From NCBI GenBank assembly GCA_049644685.1, contig JBARSJ010000131.1, positions 307 through 64,306 on the forward strand: DNA of 64,000 bases, given 5' to 3'. Positions within the stretch are counted from its first letter, which is position 1, and every line of letters starts with the position of its first letter. The notes below the pieces were generated by a model that saw only the letters and a list, made by a program, of their open reading frames with translations, was not told the origin of the DNA and searched no databases. Positions 4,124 through 52,634 of this stretch are shown here, piece after piece. A program made the translations under genes and the position numbers. The stretch is from Anaerolineales bacterium (GTDB taxonomy: Bacteria; Chloroflexota; Anaerolineae; Anaerolineales; UBA11858).

Positions 4124-4603
4124 TTAGGTGTTAACACTCGCTTTATTGATCAGGTCACTCTGCTGAATGCTGTCAATCACATCCTCGCCCTGAATGACTT
4201 TGCCAAATACGGTGTGTTTTCCATCCAGGTGAGGTTGGGGAAGATGGGTGATGAAAAACTGGCTGCCGTTAGTATTTGGTCCTGAATTGGCCATGGAAAT
4301 CACTTTTTTGCCATGTTTAAGAGGATTGCCGGACAATTCGTCCTCAAATTTATATCCTGGACCGCCCATCCCTGAACCGGTTGGGTCGCCGCCCTGAACC
4401 ATGAAATTGTCAATCACTCTGTGGAAAGTTATCCCGTCATAAAAAGCCTCATTGACTAAAAAGACGAAGTTGTTCACCGTTTTGGGAGCATGTTCTGGAT
4501 AAAGTTCCAGCTGAATTTCCCCTCTGGTGGTTTCCAGTGTTACCTGATATACCCGGTCCTCATCAATTGTCAATGCCGGCGGGTTTTCCCATTGTTTTGC
4601 CAT
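4124..4603 (-). CDS. ppiB: Peptidyl-prolyl cis-trans isomerase, cyclophilin type
   Basis: 159 aa. Motifs FHRVI.NFM.QGGDPTG.G.GGPGY.F.DE and [16 protein letters not shown]. Confidence 0.9.
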
Positions 4604-10070: not shown

Positions 10071-10355
10071 GTCAAGTCCACTGGTTATCTGCGGGTAGAG
10101 TTGCCTGGTCTAAAATTATAACGAAGTAATTCTCGAGGATTTCTCTCCTGCCAAATGGCCCTTTGGATTAAATAATAGACCAGTGACACCTATCTGTAAA
10201 TGCCTTCTGCGGATTTGGTGATGATAGCGGAGGACAAACTATTCAGAGTTTATCTGCCGCTACTGCGCATACTTAATAATCAGGAATCTTTGCCTGCGGA
10301 TCCCTGGCAAACTGTGATAGTAATCAATATTATTGATAATGTACGGCATTCGTGA

Positions 10356-10364
10356 TGCTATACT
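10356..10364 (+). promoter_or_regulatory. Extended -10 box TGCTATACT; candidate promoter reading into cassette array A
   Basis: The same 9-mer family (TGCTATAMT) lies upstream of tRNA-Val, ftsK and the tail-tube-like gene. The identical TGCTATACT recurs at 47647, at a similar distance from the other short attC. Confidence 0.4.
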
Positions 10365-10404
10365 AAAATTGAATCGGGCAACAAAATGGCTGCTATTTAG
10401 GGCA

Positions 10405-10456
10405 AGATAATGCATTATTCTATTATCGCGCAAGTGAAACATAATTAACGTTAGAT
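10405..10456 (+). other. Short attC-like site (A0) at the left boundary of array A
   Basis: 30/32 nt identical to the short site at 47718-47749 (ATTATCrCGCArGTGAAACATAATTAACGTTA). It ends in GTTAGAT (10450-10456). The 5' box is degenerate (GATAATG instead of CATAACG). Confidence 0.45.
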
Positions 10457-10502
10457 GGCACTTCTCTTTCGGTGGCAGCCATCTGGATGAAAGGATGCAT
10501 TT

Positions 10503-11060
10503 GTGGATATTGGAAGAGAGTATGATTCGGCAATCGAGATAATCCGTGAGTACTATGATGGACCAATACGGCCTTATATGACTGTCGAGTTCGGAAGAAG
10601 AAAGAAACAAGGAGCGATTTCATTAATTATTAGCTACTCCAGAGAAATGAACCCCAGAAAGCTGGTTGATATTCTCCAGGATAAACTCCCGGATCAATAC
10701 ATTGCATTCCTTGGAAATGATAAATGGCTCGGTGAAGAAAAGAATAATTACCCTGAGATCGTTATTGCAATAGCATCTTCTCAATTCGAAGCAATAAGAC
10801 TTGCGGAGTCGAGAGGCGTAAACCAAGACGTTTCGACGGAAGAAGTGATAGATAAGCTCAAGGAATATGACAGGAAGTATAGAATCAGGATCTTAAGAGC
10901 CACTATAGAGGCAGTATCATTCAGATTGAAAACTCTATCTGAAGACATGAACGCCCATCTTGATGATCAAGCGGAAACTCTGAAACTCAATACGTATCCG
11001 AGAGAAGAGATCATTTCAGAAATTTCGAAAAAATTGATTGATGGGTTTTGGTGGGACTAG
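10503..11060 (+). CDS. Hypothetical protein (cassette A1); the C-terminal ...GFWWD resembles DUF4253, unverified
   Basis: 185-aa ORF with a GTG start. It is the only long ORF between the cassette boundaries 10451 and 11178. Confidence 0.5.
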   Translation: MDIGREYDSAIEIIREYYDGPIRPYMTVEFGRRKKQGAISLIISYSREMNPRKLVDILQDKLPDQYIAFLGNDKWLGEEKNNYPEIVIAIASSQFEAIRLAESRGVNQDVSTEEVIDKLKEYDRKYRIRILRATIEAVSFRLKTLSEDMNAHLDDQAETLKLNTYPREEIISEISKKLIDGFWWD

Positions 11061-11089
11061 TTACGTTTCATATTATCCAGAATGTGTGA

Positions 11090-11184
11090 GTGCCATCTAA
11101 CAAATCGCTGAAGCGGACGCCTATAGCAGCGGCAAATCCATATCTCGGTCATAGCCGGCGCCGCTTAGCTCAAAGCCGTTAGGC
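11090..11184 (+). other. attC site A1
   Basis: GTGCCATCTAA (11090-11100) is the exact reverse complement of the cassette start TTAGATGGCAC (10451-10461). The 5' arm GCT(G)AAGCGG(A)CGCC pairs with GGCGCCGCTTAGC, leaving two extrahelical bases. It ends in GTTAGGC (11178-11184). Confidence 0.75.
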
Positions 11185-11212
11185 GGCAAGCTTTATTTAG
11201 AGGAGGTTTCAT

Positions 11213-11755
11213 ATGAGTTTGCATATTAGTTTGGTGTCAATTCAGGGGAACCATCTTTCTGAGATAGCTGGTGTTCTTGAAGATTGCGAATATATAGTAG
11301 AAGATTCCTTTACAGTAAAATCTGGAGATCAGGTATCAGAAGAACTTGGGTGGAATCCGGATAGAAACAGAGTCGCAAAAGCTGCTTATTTTGCACATGG
11401 GTGGACTTATATCATTGACCCTGAACTTGTCCTTTTAATAAATGATGTCTGGTTGAAATATTCCCGCAAATGGAATAATCGCATCTTTGGCTGGATTTGT
11501 GAAGGTGTGTCTGGCACGTATGGGATCACCGTCTTTGATTCAGGGAATAAACGTCGTGTAGTAGTCAGTGTTGATGGCGAAGTCGTTACTGATGAAGGCA
11601 AACCACTTAAGGAAGAAACTGATCTCGATTGGAACGATGTCTGGGAAACAGATATACTTGGGTTAGCGAAACGAATCGGTGCAGTTTATGACTTTCCTGC
11701 CGATCGTGATTACCAAATTATTCACCTCGACGAATCCCAAATGTCGGCGCCTTAA
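11213..11755 (+). CDS. Hypothetical protein (cassette A2)
   Basis: 180 aa. Strong RBS AGAGGAGG 6 nt upstream of the ATG. Confidence 0.65.
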   Translation: MSLHISLVSIQGNHLSEIAGVLEDCEYIVEDSFTVKSGDQVSEELGWNPDRNRVAKAAYFAHGWTYIIDPELVLLINDVWLKYSRKWNNRIFGWICEGVSGTYGITVFDSGNKRRVVVSVDGEVVTDEGKPLKEETDLDWNDVWETDILGLAKRIGAVYDFPADRDYQIIHLDESQMSAP

Positions 11756-11773
11756 TGACATACCCACAAAACG

Positions 11774-11833
11774 CAGCATAACCTCCGCTCCAGCGAACGC
11801 TGGGGAGCGCGCCGCTGAGCTCATCCGTTAGGA
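11774..11833 (+). other. attC site A2
   Basis: GCATAAC (11776-11782) ... GCTGAGCTCATCC-GTTAGGA (11827-11833). The arms GCTC(C)AGCG / CGCTGAGC pair with an unpaired base. Confidence 0.7.
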
Positions 11834-11865
11834 ATTGAAAGGTAATTCTAATTTCATAAGGAAAT

Positions 11866-12129
11866 ATGGTTGAGTCTAAAGAATCAAACAAGCAGTGGGC
11901 AGAGTATATTGAACTGATAAGAAAGTATTTCATGTTCCTCTTTGAGGAGTATAACTACGAGATGTCTCATATACAAAAATATGGTGCATTTCACAATGCG
12001 TTTTACATAATCGGACTCAGTGCTAAGGGGCTTCCTAGGCTTCAATTCTTAGGAGAGATTGCACCAGGAATCATGATTGGTTTGCCTGACGCACCATTCG
12101 GAGAAGATAAAGAAATAAATGGACATTAA
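11866..12129 (+). CDS. Hypothetical small protein (first ORF of cassette A3)
   Basis: 87 aa with AAGGAAAT before the ATG. No attC separates it from the next ORF. Confidence 0.45.
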   Translation: MVESKESNKQWAEYIELIRKYFMFLFEEYNYEMSHIQKYGAFHNAFYIIGLSAKGLPRLQFLGEIAPGIMIGLPDAPFGEDKEINGH

Positions 12130-12184
12130 TGTTGGTGGGGATTAGATCAGATAATGGATTACTTATTAAAGGAAGGAGGTATAG

Positions 12185-13285
12185 GTGGTGTTTCCAGATA
12201 TCCTGAATTATTTGATTCTCAAAAAGCACAAATTTGCCATAGTTTTTAGTTTATTTATGGCAGCAGGTACCGCCATTCTTTTGGTAAATCTTTGGCAGGA
12301 TTATAAAATAACCCCTTCTCGCCCAAAACCAATAAGTCCGGAAATGCTTCAGCCAGGCATAGCCTTTCTCCAGTTCAATCAGTGGGTCGAAATTGATATA
12401 ACAGGCCTTCAATGCCAAGAAATGAATTCCCAATCATCAGAAAGAGAAAAGTTTATTAACGGGATTATTGACTTCTTAATGGGCGGTGAAGCACTGCGGG
12501 AACATGTAATACTTTCTAATGAGGCAGAAACCCTTGTGCTGGTGGCAATGTTCTCTAAGGAAGTGACGTGCAGAGAAGTCAGGGATAATTCACCGCTGAG
12601 AGGAGTGATCAGCAGACAGACATTTGAGAGATATAGCAGATTAACAGAAATTGACCCAGTCCTTGCTGAATACGCTTACGACGGATATATTTATAATTTT
12701 TGTGCGTTTTGTGGGAGAGACAATACTCTAATCGGTCTGATCGTTTGCGCAGTGTTATTTATCATCAGTATTGGTTTGTTAATTATAAGTATTTACTTAA
12801 TGAAAGAAAAATCACAAGAAAAGAAAATTGACATTGAAAGCCTTCTGAATCAAACCGAGGACAATTCTTTGCTTATTCAACTTGGTCAACACCTATTCAA
12901 TAAGTACTATAAAAATGGTTTTGATAATCTAACCAAACCTGAGCAGATCATTTTTATGATTGACCAACTAGAGATGGAAATTAATAATGGTGGTTTTGCG
13001 CAGTATTATGGCAACTCTGGTTCCGACTATGCTCAAGATGTCCCTTTTGCTCTGGAATCAATTGGCGCTTCTTACACAGCTGATCTGGTAAGAAAAGGAA
13101 ACTCTTTGTTTCCAAATGGTCTTCCTCCAAAGATATGGCCTGATCGACAGGTTCTTCTTGATAACATTATTAATGATATTCATGACCAACTTGATGAGCT
13201 AGATAATTTATTTTATGAGTATAAAGATCCTTTGGGTAAACTCCAAAGAGAGTATATTCATAAGTACAAAGAACATTTTTCTTAA
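12185..13285 (+). CDS. Membrane-associated protein with C-terminal DMP19/DUF4375-like domain (second ORF of cassette A3)
   Basis: 366 aa. TM segments near residues 15-35 and 180-205. The C-terminal motif LT.PEQ....I..LE.EINNGGFAQYYGNSG resembles the DMP19 family. Confidence 0.6.
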   Translation: MVFPDILNYLILKKHKFAIVFSLFMAAGTAILLVNLWQDYKITPSRPKPISPEMLQPGIAFLQFNQWVEIDITGLQCQEMNSQSSEREKFINGIIDFLMGGEALREHVILSNEAETLVLVAMFSKEVTCREVRDNSPLRGVISRQTFERYSRLTEIDPVLAEYAYDGYIYNFCAFCGRDNTLIGLIVCAVLFIISIGLLIISIYLMKEKSQEKKIDIESLLNQTEDNSLLIQLGQHLFNKYYKNGFDNLTKPEQIIFMIDQLEMEINNGGFAQYYGNSGSDYAQDVPFALESIGASYTADLVRKGNSLFPNGLPPKIWPDRQVLLDNIINDIHDQLDELDNLFYEYKDPLGKLQREYIHKYKEHFS

Positions 13286-13297
13286 ATACATTGAATG

Positions 13298-13380
13298 TGC
13301 TTCCTAACCCCCACTGCACCCGACACTATCGCCTGCGCGCTTCGCGCTCCGCTCAGTGCGAGTGAGCTCATCCGTTAGGT
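13298..13380 (+). other. attC site A3
   Basis: TTCCTAA (13301-13307) is the reverse complement of the cassette start TTAGGAA (11828-11834). The 3' end is GAGTGAGCTCATCC-GTTAGGT (13374-13380). The arms CACT-GCAC / GTGCGAGTG pair with an unpaired base. Confidence 0.8.
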
Positions 13381-13425
13381 GCCTGAAAGATTTGATTAGC
13401 GACAATATTCAAGGAGCGTTTAGAA

Positions 13426-41485: not shown

Positions 41486-41514
41486 TTGTCAAAGGGTAGG
41501 CTGGATGCTATAAT
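41486..41514 (+). promoter_or_regulatory. Sigma-70-type promoter for tRNA-Val
   Basis: TTGTCA, 17 nt, TATAAT, with an extended TG (TGCTATAAT). The -10 box ends 14 nt before the tRNA 5' end. Confidence 0.65.
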
Positions 41515-41528
41515 TTCGCCTACAAAAC

Positions 41529-41602
<74 letters not shown>

Positions 41603-41720
41603 CTGTCTTGGTCCCATCTCGAACCTCATAGTGAGGAAGTAGAGCAATTCCTGGCAATGCTCAGATTTGAGCAGAAAAGCGAGGTAAAAAGGCTCTCAGA
41701 ATTCCTCAAATGAGGTAGAG

Positions 41721-41960
41721 ATGGGTTCTTCATTTAAAGGCACAAATCCTGATGTAACAGAAGATTACATTACCGTAAAAACTGCATCCAAATTCAGTGG
41801 TTACAACGAACAATACCTTCGAAGGTTATTAAGGGGGGGAATTTTCAAGACCAGAAAGATTGGACAACTCTGGTTGATTGAACAAGCTGATTTTGGAAAA
41901 TACTTTTCTGAAGCTACAAAATCAGATGATAAGCGATTTGGCCCCCAATCAAGTACGTAA
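41721..41960 (+). CDS. Small helix-turn-helix DNA-binding protein (excisionase/MerR-like HTH)
   Basis: 79 aa. The segment ITVKTASKFSGYNEQYLRRLLRGG....RKIG..WLI....F..Y resembles HTH_17/excisionase-family proteins. GAGG RBS upstream. Confidence 0.5.
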   Translation: MGSSFKGTNPDVTEDYITVKTASKFSGYNEQYLRRLLRGGIFKTRKIGQLWLIEQADFGKYFSEATKSDDKRFGPQSST

Positions 41961-41971
41961 CATAATTGTTA

Positions 41972-41977
41972 TATAAT
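41972..41977 (+). promoter_or_regulatory. Candidate -10 box (TGTTATATAAT context) upstream of cassette array B
   Basis: TATAAT with a TG two nt upstream. It lies between the HTH gene and the direct repeats. No convincing -35 box. Confidence 0.3.
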
Positions 41978-41988
41978 ACAGATAAGCA

Positions 41989-42057
41989 GATATCAGTCCA
42001 AATGGACCGATTATTACCGATATCCGGTCCAAATGGACCAATATCTATAGGTTAGCT
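41989..42057 (+). other. attI-like junction: two direct repeats followed by the first GTTAGCT crossover box
   Basis: GATATCAGTCCAAATGGACC (41989-42008) and GATATCCGGTCCAAATGGACC (42019-42039). Each contains the inverted repeat GTCCA-aa-TGGAC. A third, partial AATATC follows, then GTTAGCT at 42051-42057. Confidence 0.45.
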
Positions 42058-42091
42058 GGATCGAATAATTGTTAGGACAAAGGAGAGTAGA

Positions 42092-42793
42092 ATGGCGACA
42101 TATTTGTTTTGCGTTGGCGGTCATACGGGGGGCTGGTGGGTACGAGAGATAGGTATCGAATCTCAACTTCGGGAAGCAGGTCATGAAGTATTCAGACCCA
42201 CCTACACAGGTGTGGGCGAACGTATCCATCTTAGTAACCCTAACATCGACCTAAACACCCACATACAAGATATCTTGATGGTGCTCGAATATGAAGAGCT
42301 AGAGGATGTAATCCTTGTTGGACATAGCTATGGAGGAATGATTGCAGCCGGAGTGGCTGAGAAGTGCCCGGAAAGAATCGCTCACATGGTCACATTAGAT
42401 GGCATCATTCCAAATGATGGACAATCGGTCGCAGACATTATCGGAGCTCAGGTAATGGAGTTCCTAAAGGGAAATGCTAAGGCGCATGGTGAGGGGTGGC
42501 AAGTAATACCTGATTGGCCCGGTGTGAAACCAAGACATACAGGGCATCCGCTCGCAACAATGCAAACAAAAATCGATATTAGTAATCCTAAAGCAGCGGA
42601 GATCCCAAAGACATATATCTTTTGCACAGAGGGCAAGGAAGAGCTTCCCATCATTCAATACACAATTGATCAAGTTCCCAGGGTAAAGTCGGATCCAAAC
42701 TGGGAGTACTATGAAATCCAGACTGATCACGAGCTTACTGAGACTGATGAACTCGTAGGGATTCTTCTGGATATTGGACGGCGATCCAGCTAA
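42092..42793 (+). CDS. Alpha/beta hydrolase (esterase; salicylate-esterase-like) (cassette B1)
   Basis: 233 aa. Nucleophile elbow GHSYGG. AAAGGAG RBS. The TAA stop lies inside the attC R'' box. Confidence 0.75.
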   Translation: MATYLFCVGGHTGGWWVREIGIESQLREAGHEVFRPTYTGVGERIHLSNPNIDLNTHIQDILMVLEYEELEDVILVGHSYGGMIAAGVAEKCPERIAHMVTLDGIIPNDGQSVADIIGAQVMEFLKGNAKAHGEGWQVIPDWPGVKPRHTGHPLATMQTKIDISNPKAAEIPKTYIFCTEGKEELPIIQYTIDQVPRVKSDPNWEYYEIQTDHELTETDELVGILLDIGRRSS

Positions 42794-42867
42794 CCCCCGC
42801 TCCACCCGACAGCCAGGGGAGGACCGGGAAAGGAAGACCCGGCTGCGGGTGAGCTCATCCGTTAGCT
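42783..42867 (+). other. attC site B1
   Basis: CGATCCAGCTAA (42782-42793) is the exact reverse complement of the cassette start TTAGCTGGATCG (42052-42063). The arm GCTC(C)ACCCG(A)CAGCC pairs with GGCTGCGGGTGAGC, leaving two extrahelical bases. The unpaired spacers are CCCC / TCATCC. It ends in GTTAGCT (42861-42867). Confidence 0.85.
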
Positions 42868-45926: not shown

Positions 45927-46037
45927 AAGGTACAATTCAGACAATTATTAAGAAAAATGTATTCGAAAAGTGGTTCGTGATCTGTCCACTAACGTCCACT
46001 AGAATCGCTTGACGAATCCGGCGGGCGATTATTTTTC
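45927..46037 (+). ncRNA. Repeated noncoding module R1: -10-like box, conserved 29-nt motif, terminator hairpin (candidate small transcript)
   Basis: TACAAT (45931-36). Motif GGTTCGTGATCTGTCCACTAACGTCCACT (45972-46000). Hairpin AATCGC/GCGATT followed by ATTTTT (46003-46036). Confidence 0.35.
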
Positions 46038-47485: not shown

Positions 47486-47546
47486 AAGGTCCTAACCCGC
47501 GCTGTAGCAAAAGCTAGGATCGCGCTACTGAGCTCATCTGTTAGAT
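47486..47546 (+). other. attC site B4
   Basis: TCCTAAC (47490-96) ... CTGAGCTCATCT-GTTAGAT (47540-46). It carries the family signature at both ends. Confidence 0.7.
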
Positions 47547-47567: not shown

Positions 47568-47630
47568 AAGGTTATAATTAGGAAAAATCTATTAGAAAAG
47601 CGGTTCGTGATCTGTCCACCAATGCCCACA
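47568..47630 (+). ncRNA. Repeated noncoding module R2 (inside ORF-less cassette B5)
   Basis: GGTTATAAT (-10 at 47573-78), then GGTTCGTGATCTGTCCACCAATGCCCAC (47602-29). Confidence 0.35.
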
Positions 47631-47701: not shown

Positions 47702-47752
47702 ACATAACGCCTAAATGATTATCACGCAGGTGAAACATAATTAACGTTATGT
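47702..47752 (+). other. Short attC-like site B5 (51 nt class)
   Basis: ACATAACG / CGTTATGT form an 8-bp outer stem, followed by an internal loop. The inner stem is ATTAT-CAC / GTG-(aaac)-ATAAT. 30/32 nt are identical to 10422-10453. Confidence 0.5.
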
Positions 47753-49243: not shown

Positions 49244-49329
49244 ACCTCATAACCCGCCGGTCAACCGGACAGCAGGGGCTTCCGATCCGCTCCAGCCCTG
49301 CTACTGGTTACCTCTGCGATAGGTTGAGA
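49244..49329 (+). other. attC site B6
   Basis: CTCATAAC (49246-53). GGT(C)AACC pairs with GGTTACC, and AGCAGGG(G)CT pairs with AGCCCTGCT, giving two extrahelical bases on the 5' arm. It ends in GTTGAGA (49323-29). Confidence 0.6.
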
Positions 49330-49347: not shown

Positions 49348-49447
49348 AGGGTTATAATTCAGGAGAATATTATATAAAGCCGGTTCGAGATCTGTCCACT
49401 AACGTCCACTCAATTACCGCTATTCTAAGAGGGTAGCGGTTTTCTTG
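49348..49447 (+). ncRNA. Repeated noncoding module R3: -10-like box, conserved motif, terminator
   Basis: GGTTATAAT (-10 at 49353-58). Motif GGTTCGAGATCTGTCCACTAACGTCCACT (49382-49410). Hairpin ACCGCTA/TAGCGGT followed by TTTCTT. Confidence 0.4.
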
Positions 49448-50177: not shown

Positions 50178-50193
50178 CTTCCGATAGAAAGTC

Positions 50194-50281
50194 AGTTCGA
50201 GATCTCCAACACCCTCGTGTTGGAGTCGCAGGATGGGGAAATTGACCTTCCCCTTCCCGCTGATGTCCACCAACGTCCACT
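50194..50281 (+). repeat. Module R4: the conserved motif split by a 58-nt insertion, at the right end of array B
   Basis: AGTTCGAGATCT (50194-205), then a 58-nt insert with hairpins CCAACAC/GTGTTGG and GGGGAA/TTCCCC, then TGTCCACCAACGTCCACT (50264-81). No promoter box is present. Confidence 0.5.
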
Positions 50282-50287
50282 AAGCTA

Positions 50288-50359: not shown

Positions 50360-51424
50360 CTACAAGCGAATCACATCTCCGCAAAACTCACAAGTAATAC
50401 TCTCCATCCCCCGTAGCAGGACCTGATTGATCGCCCCGCCGCAGGAGGGGCATTTTGTTGGTGCATCCTTGACTTTTTTGGCAGCAGCTTGGTCAATGGC
50501 GATGGCTCGCGTGGCGTCAAATTCCTTAGCTTTGGCCCGTTTGAGCAGGGCTTTCCATTCGTCGCCCCTTTGCCAGATGTGCAAATGCAGGAGGTCAAAG
50601 GGCGCACCGCTACTAAAGCGCACCTCGATATAGTCATCTTTATTCAAAAAACCCTCTTTGCGGGCCTTTGTCTCCTCGATCAGCGCTAGGGGGGCCTCCC
50701 AGAGGAGATCCTGGACCAACTTTTTCTCCGTGGCCACAAAAAGCACCTTCTTCGTCGCCACCTTTTCCTTCTGTTCAAAAAGGATCCGCTGGTCGGTCAA
50801 ATACAGTACTCCCTCAGGGTCATCTTTAGACTGCTTGCCGCCCTTCGCCCAAACTGCCTTGACCGCCATGATCCCTGATTCAGTTGCCAGCAGCTCAAAA
50901 CTCGCCTCGCTGAGTTCTGTCAGCATCCATTCCAGTTTGGTGAGATGGTTTTTTACTTTCTGAACCTCGCCGCTGAATTGATCGTATCCCCCGCGGATGC
51001 TTTCCTCCGCTGCCTCGACGCGGCCTTCCAGCGATTCCACCTGGGATTTGAGCTTGCTCACTCGGGGACGCAGGGCCCCCGGCGCTCCGCTTTCTCCCCC
51101 CAACCCCGCGATCTGCGTCTCCAAAGGGCGCAAGGACCGCTCCATGATACTGGCTTCTTTCTCAATCTGCGCTTCGAGTTTGGGCGCGATCCCGGCCCAT
51201 TCTTTTTCAAAATCTGCCGCCATCTCTTCCAATTCTTTCTCGAAAGCATACCCACTCTCACGCAAGGATTCGATCCGCCGATCCATCCCGTTGACAGATG
51301 TACCCAAATCCTCCACACTATCCCGGATCTCCGTCATCCGCACCGAGGATTGTAAATCCCGCAAAGAAGATTGCAGGTTTTGAATATCGTTTTTAACTTG
51401 CTCGGCAAGGCTTTGATTTGACAT
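50360..51424 (-). CDS. Coiled-coil protein with bacterial PH/GRAM-like domain and C-terminal zinc ribbon; unknown function
   Basis: 354 aa. The N-terminal ~180 aa have heptad-like, Glu/Leu/Ser-rich sequence. GVLYLTDQRILFEQKEK is bPH-like. The C-terminus is CPSCGG...CEFCG. GAAGGAG RBS upstream. Confidence 0.6.
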   Translation of the reverse strand: MSNQSLAEQVKNDIQNLQSSLRDLQSSVRMTEIRDSVEDLGTSVNGMDRRIESLRESGYAFEKELEEMAADFEKEWAGIAPKLEAQIEKEASIMERSLRPLETQIAGLGGESGAPGALRPRVSKLKSQVESLEGRVEAAEESIRGGYDQFSGEVQKVKNHLTKLEWMLTELSEASFELLATESGIMAVKAVWAKGGKQSKDDPEGVLYLTDQRILFEQKEKVATKKVLFVATEKKLVQDLLWEAPLALIEETKARKEGFLNKDDYIEVRFSSGAPFDLLHLHIWQRGDEWKALLKRAKAKEFDATRAIAIDQAAAKKVKDAPTKCPSCGGAINQVLLRGMESITCEFCGDVIRL

Positions 51425-52199: not shown

Positions 52200-52634
52200 A
52201 TGCCGAACAGAAGAGATTTTGATCATATAGGCAGCTTTAATTTCAGGGTGGAAATAAATGGGGTAACTGAGGGCCACTTCATTTATGTCTCTGGTCTTGA
52301 AAGTCAGAGTGAGGTGATTGAATATAGAAATGGCGCTGATAACCTCACCAGAAAAATCCCGGGGCGTACTTCGTATTCTAATATCATAATGCGCCGTGGA
52401 TACAATAATGTGGATGAATTATGGAATTGGCGAAAAAGTGTCACGGATGGGGCTATTAATCGGAGAAGTGGCTCAATATTCATCCTGGGTGCTGATGCGG
52501 AAACTGTAATCACGGAGTTCAATTTTTTTGAAGCCTGGCCCTGCCGCTATGAACTGGGACAATTCAATGGGGACCTCGATTCCGTATTAATTGAAGAGAT
52601 TGAAATCGTTACTGAAAGAATTGAACGAAAATAA
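52200..52634 (+). CDS. Phage tail-tube-like protein (T4 gp19 / 'conserved hypothetical phage tail region protein' family)
   Basis: 144 aa. Pattern F.F.VEI.G.....F..VSGLES..EVIEYR.G.......K.PGR..Y.NI...RG......LW.W.........R..GSI.......E.....F..AWP......F......V.IE.IE. AAAGGAGG RBS upstream. Confidence 0.75.
   Translation: MPNRRDFDHIGSFNFRVEINGVTEGHFIYVSGLESQSEVIEYRNGADNLTRKIPGRTSYSNIIMRRGYNNVDELWNWRKSVTDGAINRRSGSIFILGADAETVITEFNFFEAWPCRYELGQFNGDLDSVLIEEIEIVTERIERK

Follow-up and report, generated by a model that had tools for sequence, protein, structure and literature searches.

The best-described attachment site of an integron, attI1, consists of a simple site and two direct repeats that bind the integrase IntI1, and such repeats vary between integron classes (PMC3146285). 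attI sites are known to recombine as double-stranded DNA (PMC2095811). Integrons occur in Chloroflexi, the attI is unknown for most integrons, and cassette arrays without an intI gene, clustered attC sites with no integrase (CALIN), are common (PMC4889954). Here we analysed a 64-kb stretch of DNA from a member of the Anaerolineales (Chloroflexota), called the window below, together with related, mostly metagenomic loci that carry L-numbers (L004, L110 and others). Positions 41964-42057 of the window are probably the attI site and outward cassette promoter of a chromosomal integron, from which intI was cleanly deleted so that the 3' end of a helix-turn-helix (HTH) gene became fused to DNA formerly upstream of intI. 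To our knowledge, only a few integron classes have attI sites that are known in detail, and in environmental integrons these sites are not annotated. The elements of the region are the following.

41946-41968: deletion junction, where the 3' end of the HTH gene (..CCCCCAATCAA) meets GTACGTAACATAATTG (seen by comparison with L004, L029 and L114)
41969-41979, plus strand: TTATATAATAC, candidate -10 box of Pc, the cassette promoter, which faces the array (invariant alignment columns; predicted function)
41972-41977, plus strand: TATAAT
41973-42000, minus strand: promoter-like TGGACT-16-TATTAT, probably the orphaned intI promoter (consensus scan; predicted function)
41989-42008: repeat 1 (E1), GATATCAGTCCAAATGGACC = GATATC-A-GTCCA-AA-TGGAC-C, made of two inverted GGTYCA boxes
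42019-42039: repeat 2 (E2), GATATCCGGTCCAAATGGACC = GATATC-CG-GTCCA-AA-TGGAC-C, of which only the left box is conserved
42040-42045, plus strand: third ATATC word, AATATC, followed by TATAG and then the core
42051-42057, plus strand: core GTTAGCT, with the crossover between G42051 and T42052
42052-42861, plus strand: first cassette, with an alpha/beta-hydrolase open reading frame (ORF) at 42092-42793 (Pfam) and an attC at 42788-42867

A sequence-only reading had proposed an attI-like junction here, and the features it listed (the HTH gene, the TATAAT box, both repeats, AATATC and GTTAGCT) all lie where it placed them. Comparison with relatives bears the proposal out: the homologous segment abuts intI in some of them, and the homology stops at the crossover. 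Homologous attI segments were found in ten loci in total. When eight loci are aligned, most columns between TTATATAATAC and AGGTT are invariant, and similarity is gone right after AGGTT. Compared in pairs, the six intI-less loci are 83-97% identical over the 90 nt that end in GGTT and 29-42% identical over the 90 nt that follow. The proteins of the first cassettes are unrelated among the window, L110, L111, L109 and L004, while the cassettes examined at these loci end in one attC family, ..AACCCCCGCTCCACCCGAC...GGGTGAGCTCATCCGTTA... A break in identity directly after GGTT with unrelated first cassettes beyond it is what insertion by IntI would be expected to leave at G|TT (42051/42052), the very point at which the sequence-only reading had suggested looking for cassette change in relatives. 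The boundary cores in the compared loci read GTTAGCT, GTTAGGT, GTTATGN, GTTGGGC and GTTAGTT, so that a crossover core of the GTTRRRY type stands exactly where the cassette content varies. Within the window, a 14-mer search allowing up to two mismatches gave 3 matches where 0.67 are expected, a count also reached in 6 of 100 shuffles, and GTTAGCT occurs in 8 copies against 4.3 expected. These chance tests are weak; the comparative evidence is decisive.

The relatives also supply the recombinase that the sequence-only reading had left unseen, and it is the integron integrase, present in cis at the same position in L004, L114 and L029 and deleted in the window. In L004, an HTH gene (67% identical) lies 5 bp from a convergent intI of 320 aa, whose product scores 448 bits on the integron integrase model TIGR02249 (cutoff 265); directly upstream of this intI come TTATATAAT..AAGCAGATATCGGTTCAAATGAACCGATTATTACCAATATACAGGTCATTTGGCCTGATATCAACAGGTTATGC and then short cassettes with attC sites of the window family. 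The arrangement in L114 (HTH gene 82% identical) is as in L004, and that in L115 is partly so. L029 combines an integrase 87% identical with the same upstream segment and has no HTH gene within 1.2 kb. The integrases of L004, L114 and L029 are 320-326 aa long, share 86-88% mutual identity and are transcribed divergently from the attI segment, which is common to the three loci: TTATATAAT..AAGCAGATATC-GGTYCAAATGAACC-GATTATT..TATTCGGTTCA..GATATCAAYAGGTTA. Because this segment lies directly upstream of a bona fide, divergent intI in all three, its counterpart in the window is orthologous to the attI of a real integron.

The loss of intI can be traced. The window, L001, L012, L109, L110 and L111/L112 lack intI and share one junction, at which the 3' end of the HTH gene, ..GGCCCCCAATCAA, runs straight into (A/G)TACGTAACATAA. 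In L029 and L114, the sequence to the right of the junction is found upstream of intI, about 25 bp from its start codon, and the missing piece is the whole intI gene, about 960 bp. The junction DNA thus comes from upstream of intI, and the last HTH codons (S/N-T-stop; 2-3 codons, 41953-41960) are built from it. In the intI-less loci the protein ends in QS(S/N)T* or HSNT*, and a fused C-terminus GPxx(N/S/I)T, mostly GPQS(N/S/I)T, is found in 18 of the 85 clusters of HTH homologs. In L114, short repeats (CCCCC and AATCAA) stand at both deletion endpoints, which suggests that the deletion may have been microhomology-mediated.

No intI-like sequence was found in the 64-kb window by tblastn with the L004 integrase, and Pfam scans of the ORFs flanking the array gave no recombinase. 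One candidate at the far end of the array, a 354-aa ORF at 50360-51424 on the minus strand, turned out to be a coiled-coil protein. With four recognisable attC sites and no intI within the element, the locus is not a complete integron; it is a CALIN by the definitions of Cury et al., yet one that keeps its attI and promoter. The platform is chromosomal, as L110 has the same upstream genes as the window (a 412-aa protein, an epimerase, a cyclase and tRNA-Val CAC). A search for the attI segment on viral contigs gave no match.

By analogy with class 1 integrons, from whose biology the mechanism is drawn, an integron integrase, now acting in trans if at all, would bind the core AGG|TTAGC. Strand exchange between G42051 and T42052 with a folded attC would then let new cassettes enter at that point. 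Transcription of the array would be driven by the invariant TTATATAAT, since TTATATAATAC is invariant and faces the array and is thus the likely -10 box of a predicted cassette promoter. On the opposite strand, TGGACT-16-TATTAT would be the leftover promoter of intI; it points to the position that intI occupies in L004, L114 and L029, and L004 has the hexamer TTGAAC in place of TGGACT.

The repeats upstream of the core require a more nuanced account than the sequence-only reading gave. It had described paired direct repeats, each with an inverted repeat, and this is correct for the window, where the repeats start 30 bp apart and both contain GTCCA-AA-TGGAC. It does not hold as a general feature, as repeat 2 of L114 is not palindromic. 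Repeat 1 is present in every relative as GATATC(G/A)GTCCAAATGAACC-GATTATT, a near-palindrome of two GGTYCA boxes, and is the only palindrome kept in all ten loci. In repeat 2 the left box, TATTCGGTYCA(A/T)A(T/A), is conserved, whereas the right half varies: it reads TGGACC in the window and L029, TGGCCT in L004, and TTGAGC, TTGCGC or TTGCCT elsewhere. We had considered that the right half decayed after the loss of intI, and withdrew this idea because the intI-bearing L114 has the same non-palindromic repeat 2. Conservation thus extends to three GGTYCA boxes (in direct, inverted and direct orientation), to the ATATC words and to the core AGGTTA. The window repeats deviate from all relatives at otherwise invariant positions. 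As only part of the window pattern is conserved, its two near-identical palindromic direct repeats are a derived state, probably the result of homogenisation by gene conversion.

The GGTYCA boxes resemble the core GGTTA and the flank of the attC R' box (ATCCGTTA / ..ATCCGTTAG..). Given that attI1 carries two IntI1-binding repeats next to its simple site and that these vary by class, the boxes are most likely predicted accessory IntI sites, comparable to the direct repeats DR1 and DR2 of attI1. In the order offered to the integrase, the left (direct) and right (inverted) boxes of repeat 1 would come first, followed by the left (direct) box of repeat 2 and the core GGTTA (direct). In about 600 kb of related loci, the palindrome motif occurs only at these attI sites, with the exception of one unrelated match inside L017. 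We also compared the attI sides of 76 integrases that are 51-61% identical, none with an HTH homolog nearby. Short-spacer inverted repeats number 1.46 per 220 bp there, as against 0.5-0.7 in controls, and two or more inverted repeats are present at 33 of the 76 attI sides versus 7 of 76 control stretches inside intI. The arms at these distant sites are lineage-specific and often core-like (for example CCTAA/TTAGG or GTTATAC). The confinement of the palindrome to attI and the enrichment at distant attI sides support, at the level of sequence, a predicted role as accessory sites.

Several points weigh against the segment being an attI with accessory IntI sites. The sixth base (C) of GTTAGCT deviates from strict GTTRRRY. 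There is no inverted L box 3-8 bp before the core, that is, none at the canonical spacing, and the direct-inverted-direct geometry is unlike a canonical simple site. That IntI binds the GGTYCA boxes is something we infer. The palindromic repeat pair of the window arose without an intI in cis, and drift, gene conversion or some new use could lie behind it. No attC-like fold was found before 45138, where an attC is expected, and none is recognisable there. The high conservation of attI relative to the HTH gene could reflect exchange among the several HTH paralogs per genome, and homologous exchange between arrays, not IntI in trans, could in principle account for the differing first cassettes. 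Finally, no integrase is known for the window genome, so that the attI may be inactive today.

This last point leads to the alternative that survives best, namely that the window attI is a non-functional relic that has not yet decayed since the loss of intI, with neutral homogenisation of its repeats. The lack of intI in 64 kb, the deviation of the window repeats from positions that are otherwise invariant, and one degenerate attC in the array all fit a relic. However, the six intI-less loci retain their high attI identity while the adjacent HTH gene diverges to 65-68%; in L109 the attI segment is 86-93% identical although the HTH gene there is down to 65-68% nucleotide identity. In addition, different first cassettes stand at the exact crossover among intI-less loci, and one metagenome assembly, SDBS01, holds both an intI-bearing copy (L029) and an intI-less copy (L112). 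We regard a mere relic as unlikely, though as an option to be kept in view.

Somewhat less probable is that the repeat 1 region serves mainly as a promoter or operator for both divergent promoters, through the intI -35 box and another dimeric regulator or IntI autoregulation, and not as a recombination accessory. The -35 box of the sigma-70-like TGGACT-16-TATTAT lies inside repeat 1, with TTGAAC as the L004 counterpart, and part of the conservation of repeat 1 may therefore be due to promoter or operator function. Repeat 1 is also the sole palindrome conserved throughout the ten loci, and, counted from the start site that TATAAT would predict, it covers about +5 to +25. The corresponding region of class 1 integrons holds the promoter of intI and its LexA box. 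Nevertheless, the segment is still conserved in lineages that have no intI to transcribe, and the promoter scan gave no excess over shuffles (2 sites against 1.6). A LexA-type operator was sought in 41901-42100, and none of four box types (GAAC-N4-GTTC, CTGT-N8-ACAG, GTTC-N7-GTTC or the cyanobacterial type) matched.

The other part of the locus is the HTH gene, which belongs to a module linked to the 3' end of a tRNA gene.

41529-41603, plus strand: tRNA-Val(CAC) gene (ARAGORN; Rfam tRNA, 69 bits), outside the integron and anchoring the HTH module
41604-41720, plus strand: conserved tRNA-HTH spacer of 117 nt (consensus fold of 12 loci)
41721-41960, plus strand: HTH ORF of 79 aa, Xis/MerR-like winged helix (HTH_17, E 1.4e-5; AlphaFold model)

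The tRNA gene, whose 3' end is the left edge of the stretch described in the sequence-only reading, went unmentioned there; the description of the 79-aa protein as excisionase- or MerR-like was right. Matches to sequence models are marginal: 25.7 bits on HTH_17, below the gathering score of 27, and 16.4 bits against 28.8 on TIGR01764. Many homologs have a precomputed PF12728 match, and the profile of the family finds only a marginal match to SoxS (E 0.05) among sequences in the PDB. The AlphaFold model (predicted local distance difference test score 72) has the strand-helix-helix-wing fold, and its best PDB matches are Pukovnik Xis (4j2n; root-mean-square deviation 1.4 A over 47 columns, target template-modelling score 0.72) and RdfS (8dgl), followed by TraN, BldC, RacA, MtaN and MerR N-domains. 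The Foldseek E-values are weak (0.07) because the protein is small.

The homologs form 85 clusters, all of 75-90 aa and almost all metagenomic. In 21 loci from metagenome-assembled genomes of Chloroflexota/Anaerolineales, the HTH gene nearly always follows a tRNA-Val (CAC, TAC or GAC), tRNA-Glu or tRNA-Arg gene or a tRNA 3' fragment, after the conserved spacer, and tandem copies are frequent. An attI after the HTH gene is found in the window's clade only; other copies are mostly followed by a different conserved non-coding element, CAAYTGACTCTTAATCA...GGCGACTCG. In most loci no phage-type integrase or integrase of an integrative and conjugative element (ICE) adjoins the gene. The HTH gene would thus be an Xis-like gene of a tRNA-3'-end-linked module beside which the integron platform happens to sit, and not an integron component.

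Several observations concern this module itself. The consensus fold of the spacer over 12 loci has 30 pairs, 5 of them with compensatory changes, and its stem CCCATCTCGAACC / GGTAGAGATGGG (41604-41735) takes in both the start codon of the HTH gene and its Shine-Dalgarno sequence; in some loci a short version is found, in which a small hairpin replaces the inner part. An apparent ORF of 47 aa at 41570-41713 has its start within the tRNA and is unlikely to be a gene. TGCTATA(A/C)T, which seems to be a common extended -10 box of the lineage, also stands before the tRNA-Val gene (41505-41513). No known RNA family other than tRNA was detected in the region with Rfam at E <=1. Tandem HTH units occur in L008/L009 (one contig), L012 and L111, and also in L002, L013, L014, L017 and L029. 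Their order is tRNA 3' fragment, spacer, HTH gene, then 2-10 kb of cargo or the conserved element of about 230 bp from CAAYTGACTCTTAATCA to GGCGACTCG, in which GTCCA(T/C) words on the same strand abound, and finally the tRNA fragment of the following unit. Most have no integrase inside, and they resemble tRNA-targeting elements that have decayed or that lack an integrase. We also considered an island with a repeated tRNA-Val 3' end at its borders and rejected it, as there is no second copy of the tRNA 3' end or spacer in the window. The HTH-attI-array module follows tRNA-Val(CAC) among common neighbors in the window (41529-42057) and in L110 (3785-4251), and tRNA-Val(TAC) among different neighbors in L001 (5868-6336). 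Its presence at different tRNA-Val loci indicates that it moved or was exchanged between them.

We can only speculate on a broader picture, in which the intI-less attI is a working landing pad served in trans, the HTH-attI-array module is mobile cargo between tRNA-Val genes, and the accessory region is recognised in folded form. The different first cassettes at the exact crossover in six intI-less relatives suggest the landing pad; overall, this reading is unlikely. If the mobile cargo part were true, small integrase-less units linked to tRNA 3' ends would couple integron arrays to a second, tRNA-targeting mobility system.

It is improbable that the repeats are operators of the neighboring Xis-like protein, through which it controls transcription of the array or directs recombination. 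The HTH gene lies immediately upstream and reads toward the repeats, and its predicted fold resembles Xis, RdfS, BldC and MerR N-domains, which bind repeated DNA sites. The adjacent arrangement HTH-(intI)-attI is seen again in L004, L114 and L115 and throughout the deletion clade, and there are several HTH paralogs per genome. Moreover, GTCCA is enriched about 2.3-fold, with a strong strand bias, in the conserved non-coding DNA downstream of non-integron HTH copies, and the enriched element also stands beside intI in L029. However, the enrichment is modest and comes from few homologous loci, so that the counts are not independent, and two of the three conserved boxes read GGTTCA, not GTCCA, in relatives. 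Most family members follow tRNA genes without an integron, the attI palindrome is never near these non-integron copies (apart from the L017 match), L029 has the same attI with no HTH gene nearby, and distant integrons without an HTH homolog have comparable attI repeats. The role of array controller that the sequence-only reading had offered for the protein is thus not supported, the family being linked to tRNA genes and not to integrons. The same reading had noted the word GTCCA in a conserved cassette motif as well. It does recur in TGTCCACTAACGTCCAC, which is present in 4 copies, but this common word is probably shared by coincidence, given that the cassette motif resembles a tRNA 3' end and that most of the conserved attI boxes in relatives read otherwise. 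We therefore dropped GTCCA as a link between the HTH protein, attI and the cassette motif.

Least probable of all is that the repeats act folded, as a cruciform, as an attC-like single-stranded hairpin or as an RNA hairpin in the leader of the cassette transcript. As a single strand, a 76-nt segment of the window forms one long hairpin (-14.7 to -15.7 kcal/mol, z about -4.9 against shuffles), and in L029 the stem is perfect over 22 bp (z -10.5). Two stems persist in the consensus fold of 8 loci, GATATCG/CGATATC on the outside and TGAACCGA/TCGGTTCA on the inside, with a single compensatory pair, and the arm spacers of 4 to 9 nt at distant attI sites would be better tolerated by a hairpin loop than by a fixed protein dimer. 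These points are outweighed: the intI-bearing L004 has no long hairpin and only its repeat 1 folds, most pairs are invariant and hence uninformative (the covariation term is slightly unfavourable, +0.67), and attI is known to recombine in double-stranded form. When the repeat region was examined as an attC-like hairpin, it was rejected, because the structure is not conserved in the intI-bearing L004 and L114, the right half of repeat 2 is not conserved, and the GTT crossover lies outside the hairpin, without the R''/R' logic of an attC. A folded, attC-like mode of attI is unlikely.

If 41964-42057 is an attI, an array of attC-bounded cassettes should follow it. All downstream genes read on the plus strand, and between them stand attC-like sites with the inverted ends xCTAAC...GTTAGnT, which were identified manually, not by IntegronFinder; they are homologous to the attC sites of relatives (L004, L110 and L111). 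Four were recognised.

42788-42867, plus strand: attC with a paired R box on the bottom-strand fold, z -3.5, homologous to attC sites of L004, L110 and L111
45831-45916, plus strand: attC, AGCTAAC...GTTAGCT, with inverted ends
47490-47546, plus strand: attC, CCTAAC...GAGCTCATCTGTTAGAT, with inverted ends
49248-49329, plus strand: attC-like site, CATAAC...GGTTGAGA, which folds weakly

Several cassettes have a common module at their 5' end (45944-45999, 47574-47629, 49354-49409 and 50184-50282). It comprises a TATAAT-like box, GGTTCG(A/T)GATCTGTCCACYAAYGYCCAC and a terminator-like hairpin, and one copy is split by a 60-nt insert. The motif is close to a tRNA 3' end (L010 fragment TTTCGAGTCCACCAACGCCCAC) with five extra T-loop bases. 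Such modules are also found where cassettes begin in L111 and L112, and L002 has a related copy after an HTH gene; they could serve as an att-like site, as a small RNA or as a signal for processing.

The window has another, smaller group of attC sites of this family at 10440-13385, and it too is without intI. Its attC-like sites are at about 11094-11176, 11779-11833 and 13305-13380, with R' ends GAGCTCATCCGTTAGG at 11817 and 13364. Its first boundary, AACGTTAGAT near 10446, is preceded by ATCGCGCAAGTGAAACATAATTAACGTTA, a sequence that recurs in the main array at about 47716-47744. About 70 bp, GCATTCGTGATGCTATACTAAAATTGAAT..GGCTGCT..GCAAGATAAT, are common to the start of this cluster (10346-10410) and the DNA downstream of an HTH gene in L011 (about 4440-4510). 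Just beyond the main array, a T4 gp19-like tail-tube gene at 52200-52634 (Pfam E 6e-33) suggests a contractile injection system or a prophage remnant.

From a biological perspective, the orphaned attI is genuine but rather ordinary as a part of an integron, and the tRNA-linked Xis-like gene next to it is unrelated. Its value lies in an attI defined at the level of single bases by comparison alone, in a phylum that is poorly studied, and in the clear natural history of one CALIN that lost intI cleanly and retained its landing site and promoter. The varied first cassettes at the crossover, and the presence of both copy types in SDBS01, hint at ongoing cassette gain at intI-less platforms. If the attI were still used in trans, integrase-less arrays would be active parts of an integron network and not dead ends. 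The GGTYCA boxes, the core and a cognate integrase (that of L114 or L029) provide testable sequences for accessory sites outside class 1.

Compared with attI1, the site is alike in standing at the start of the array, in its G|TT crossover within a GTTRRRY-like core, in having core-like boxes within about 65 bp upstream, in the divergent promoter-like boxes within the same roughly 100 bp and, in relatives, in the divergent intI that adjoins it. It differs in that its sequence is unrelated, its GGTYCA boxes are direct-inverted-direct and not two direct repeats, and the window has neither a canonical inverted L box at the core nor an intI. The 79-aa protein resembles Xis proteins and recombination directionality factors (Pukovnik Xis 4j2n, RdfS 8dgl; HTH_17) in its small predicted fold and in its position at a tRNA 3' end, like that of an att-proximal xis. 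In contrast to these, it has no adjoining phage or ICE integrase in most loci, and its sequence similarity is marginal. As in the CALIN of Cury et al. 2016 (PMC4889954), several attC-bounded cassettes are present and there is no intI within 4 kb or within the 64-kb window; most described CALIN have no recognisable remnant of a platform, whereas the origin of this one can be traced to a precise deletion of intI that left attI and promoter intact. With sedentary chromosomal integrons such as the Vibrio superintegron, the locus shares conserved chromosomal flanks (L110), homogeneous attC sites and non-resistance cassettes. It differs from such integrons in that its array is small, its integrase is lost and its host is a member of the Chloroflexota, and in that the platform, whose tRNA-Val gene is not the same from genome to genome, adjoins an Xis-like module linked to a tRNA.

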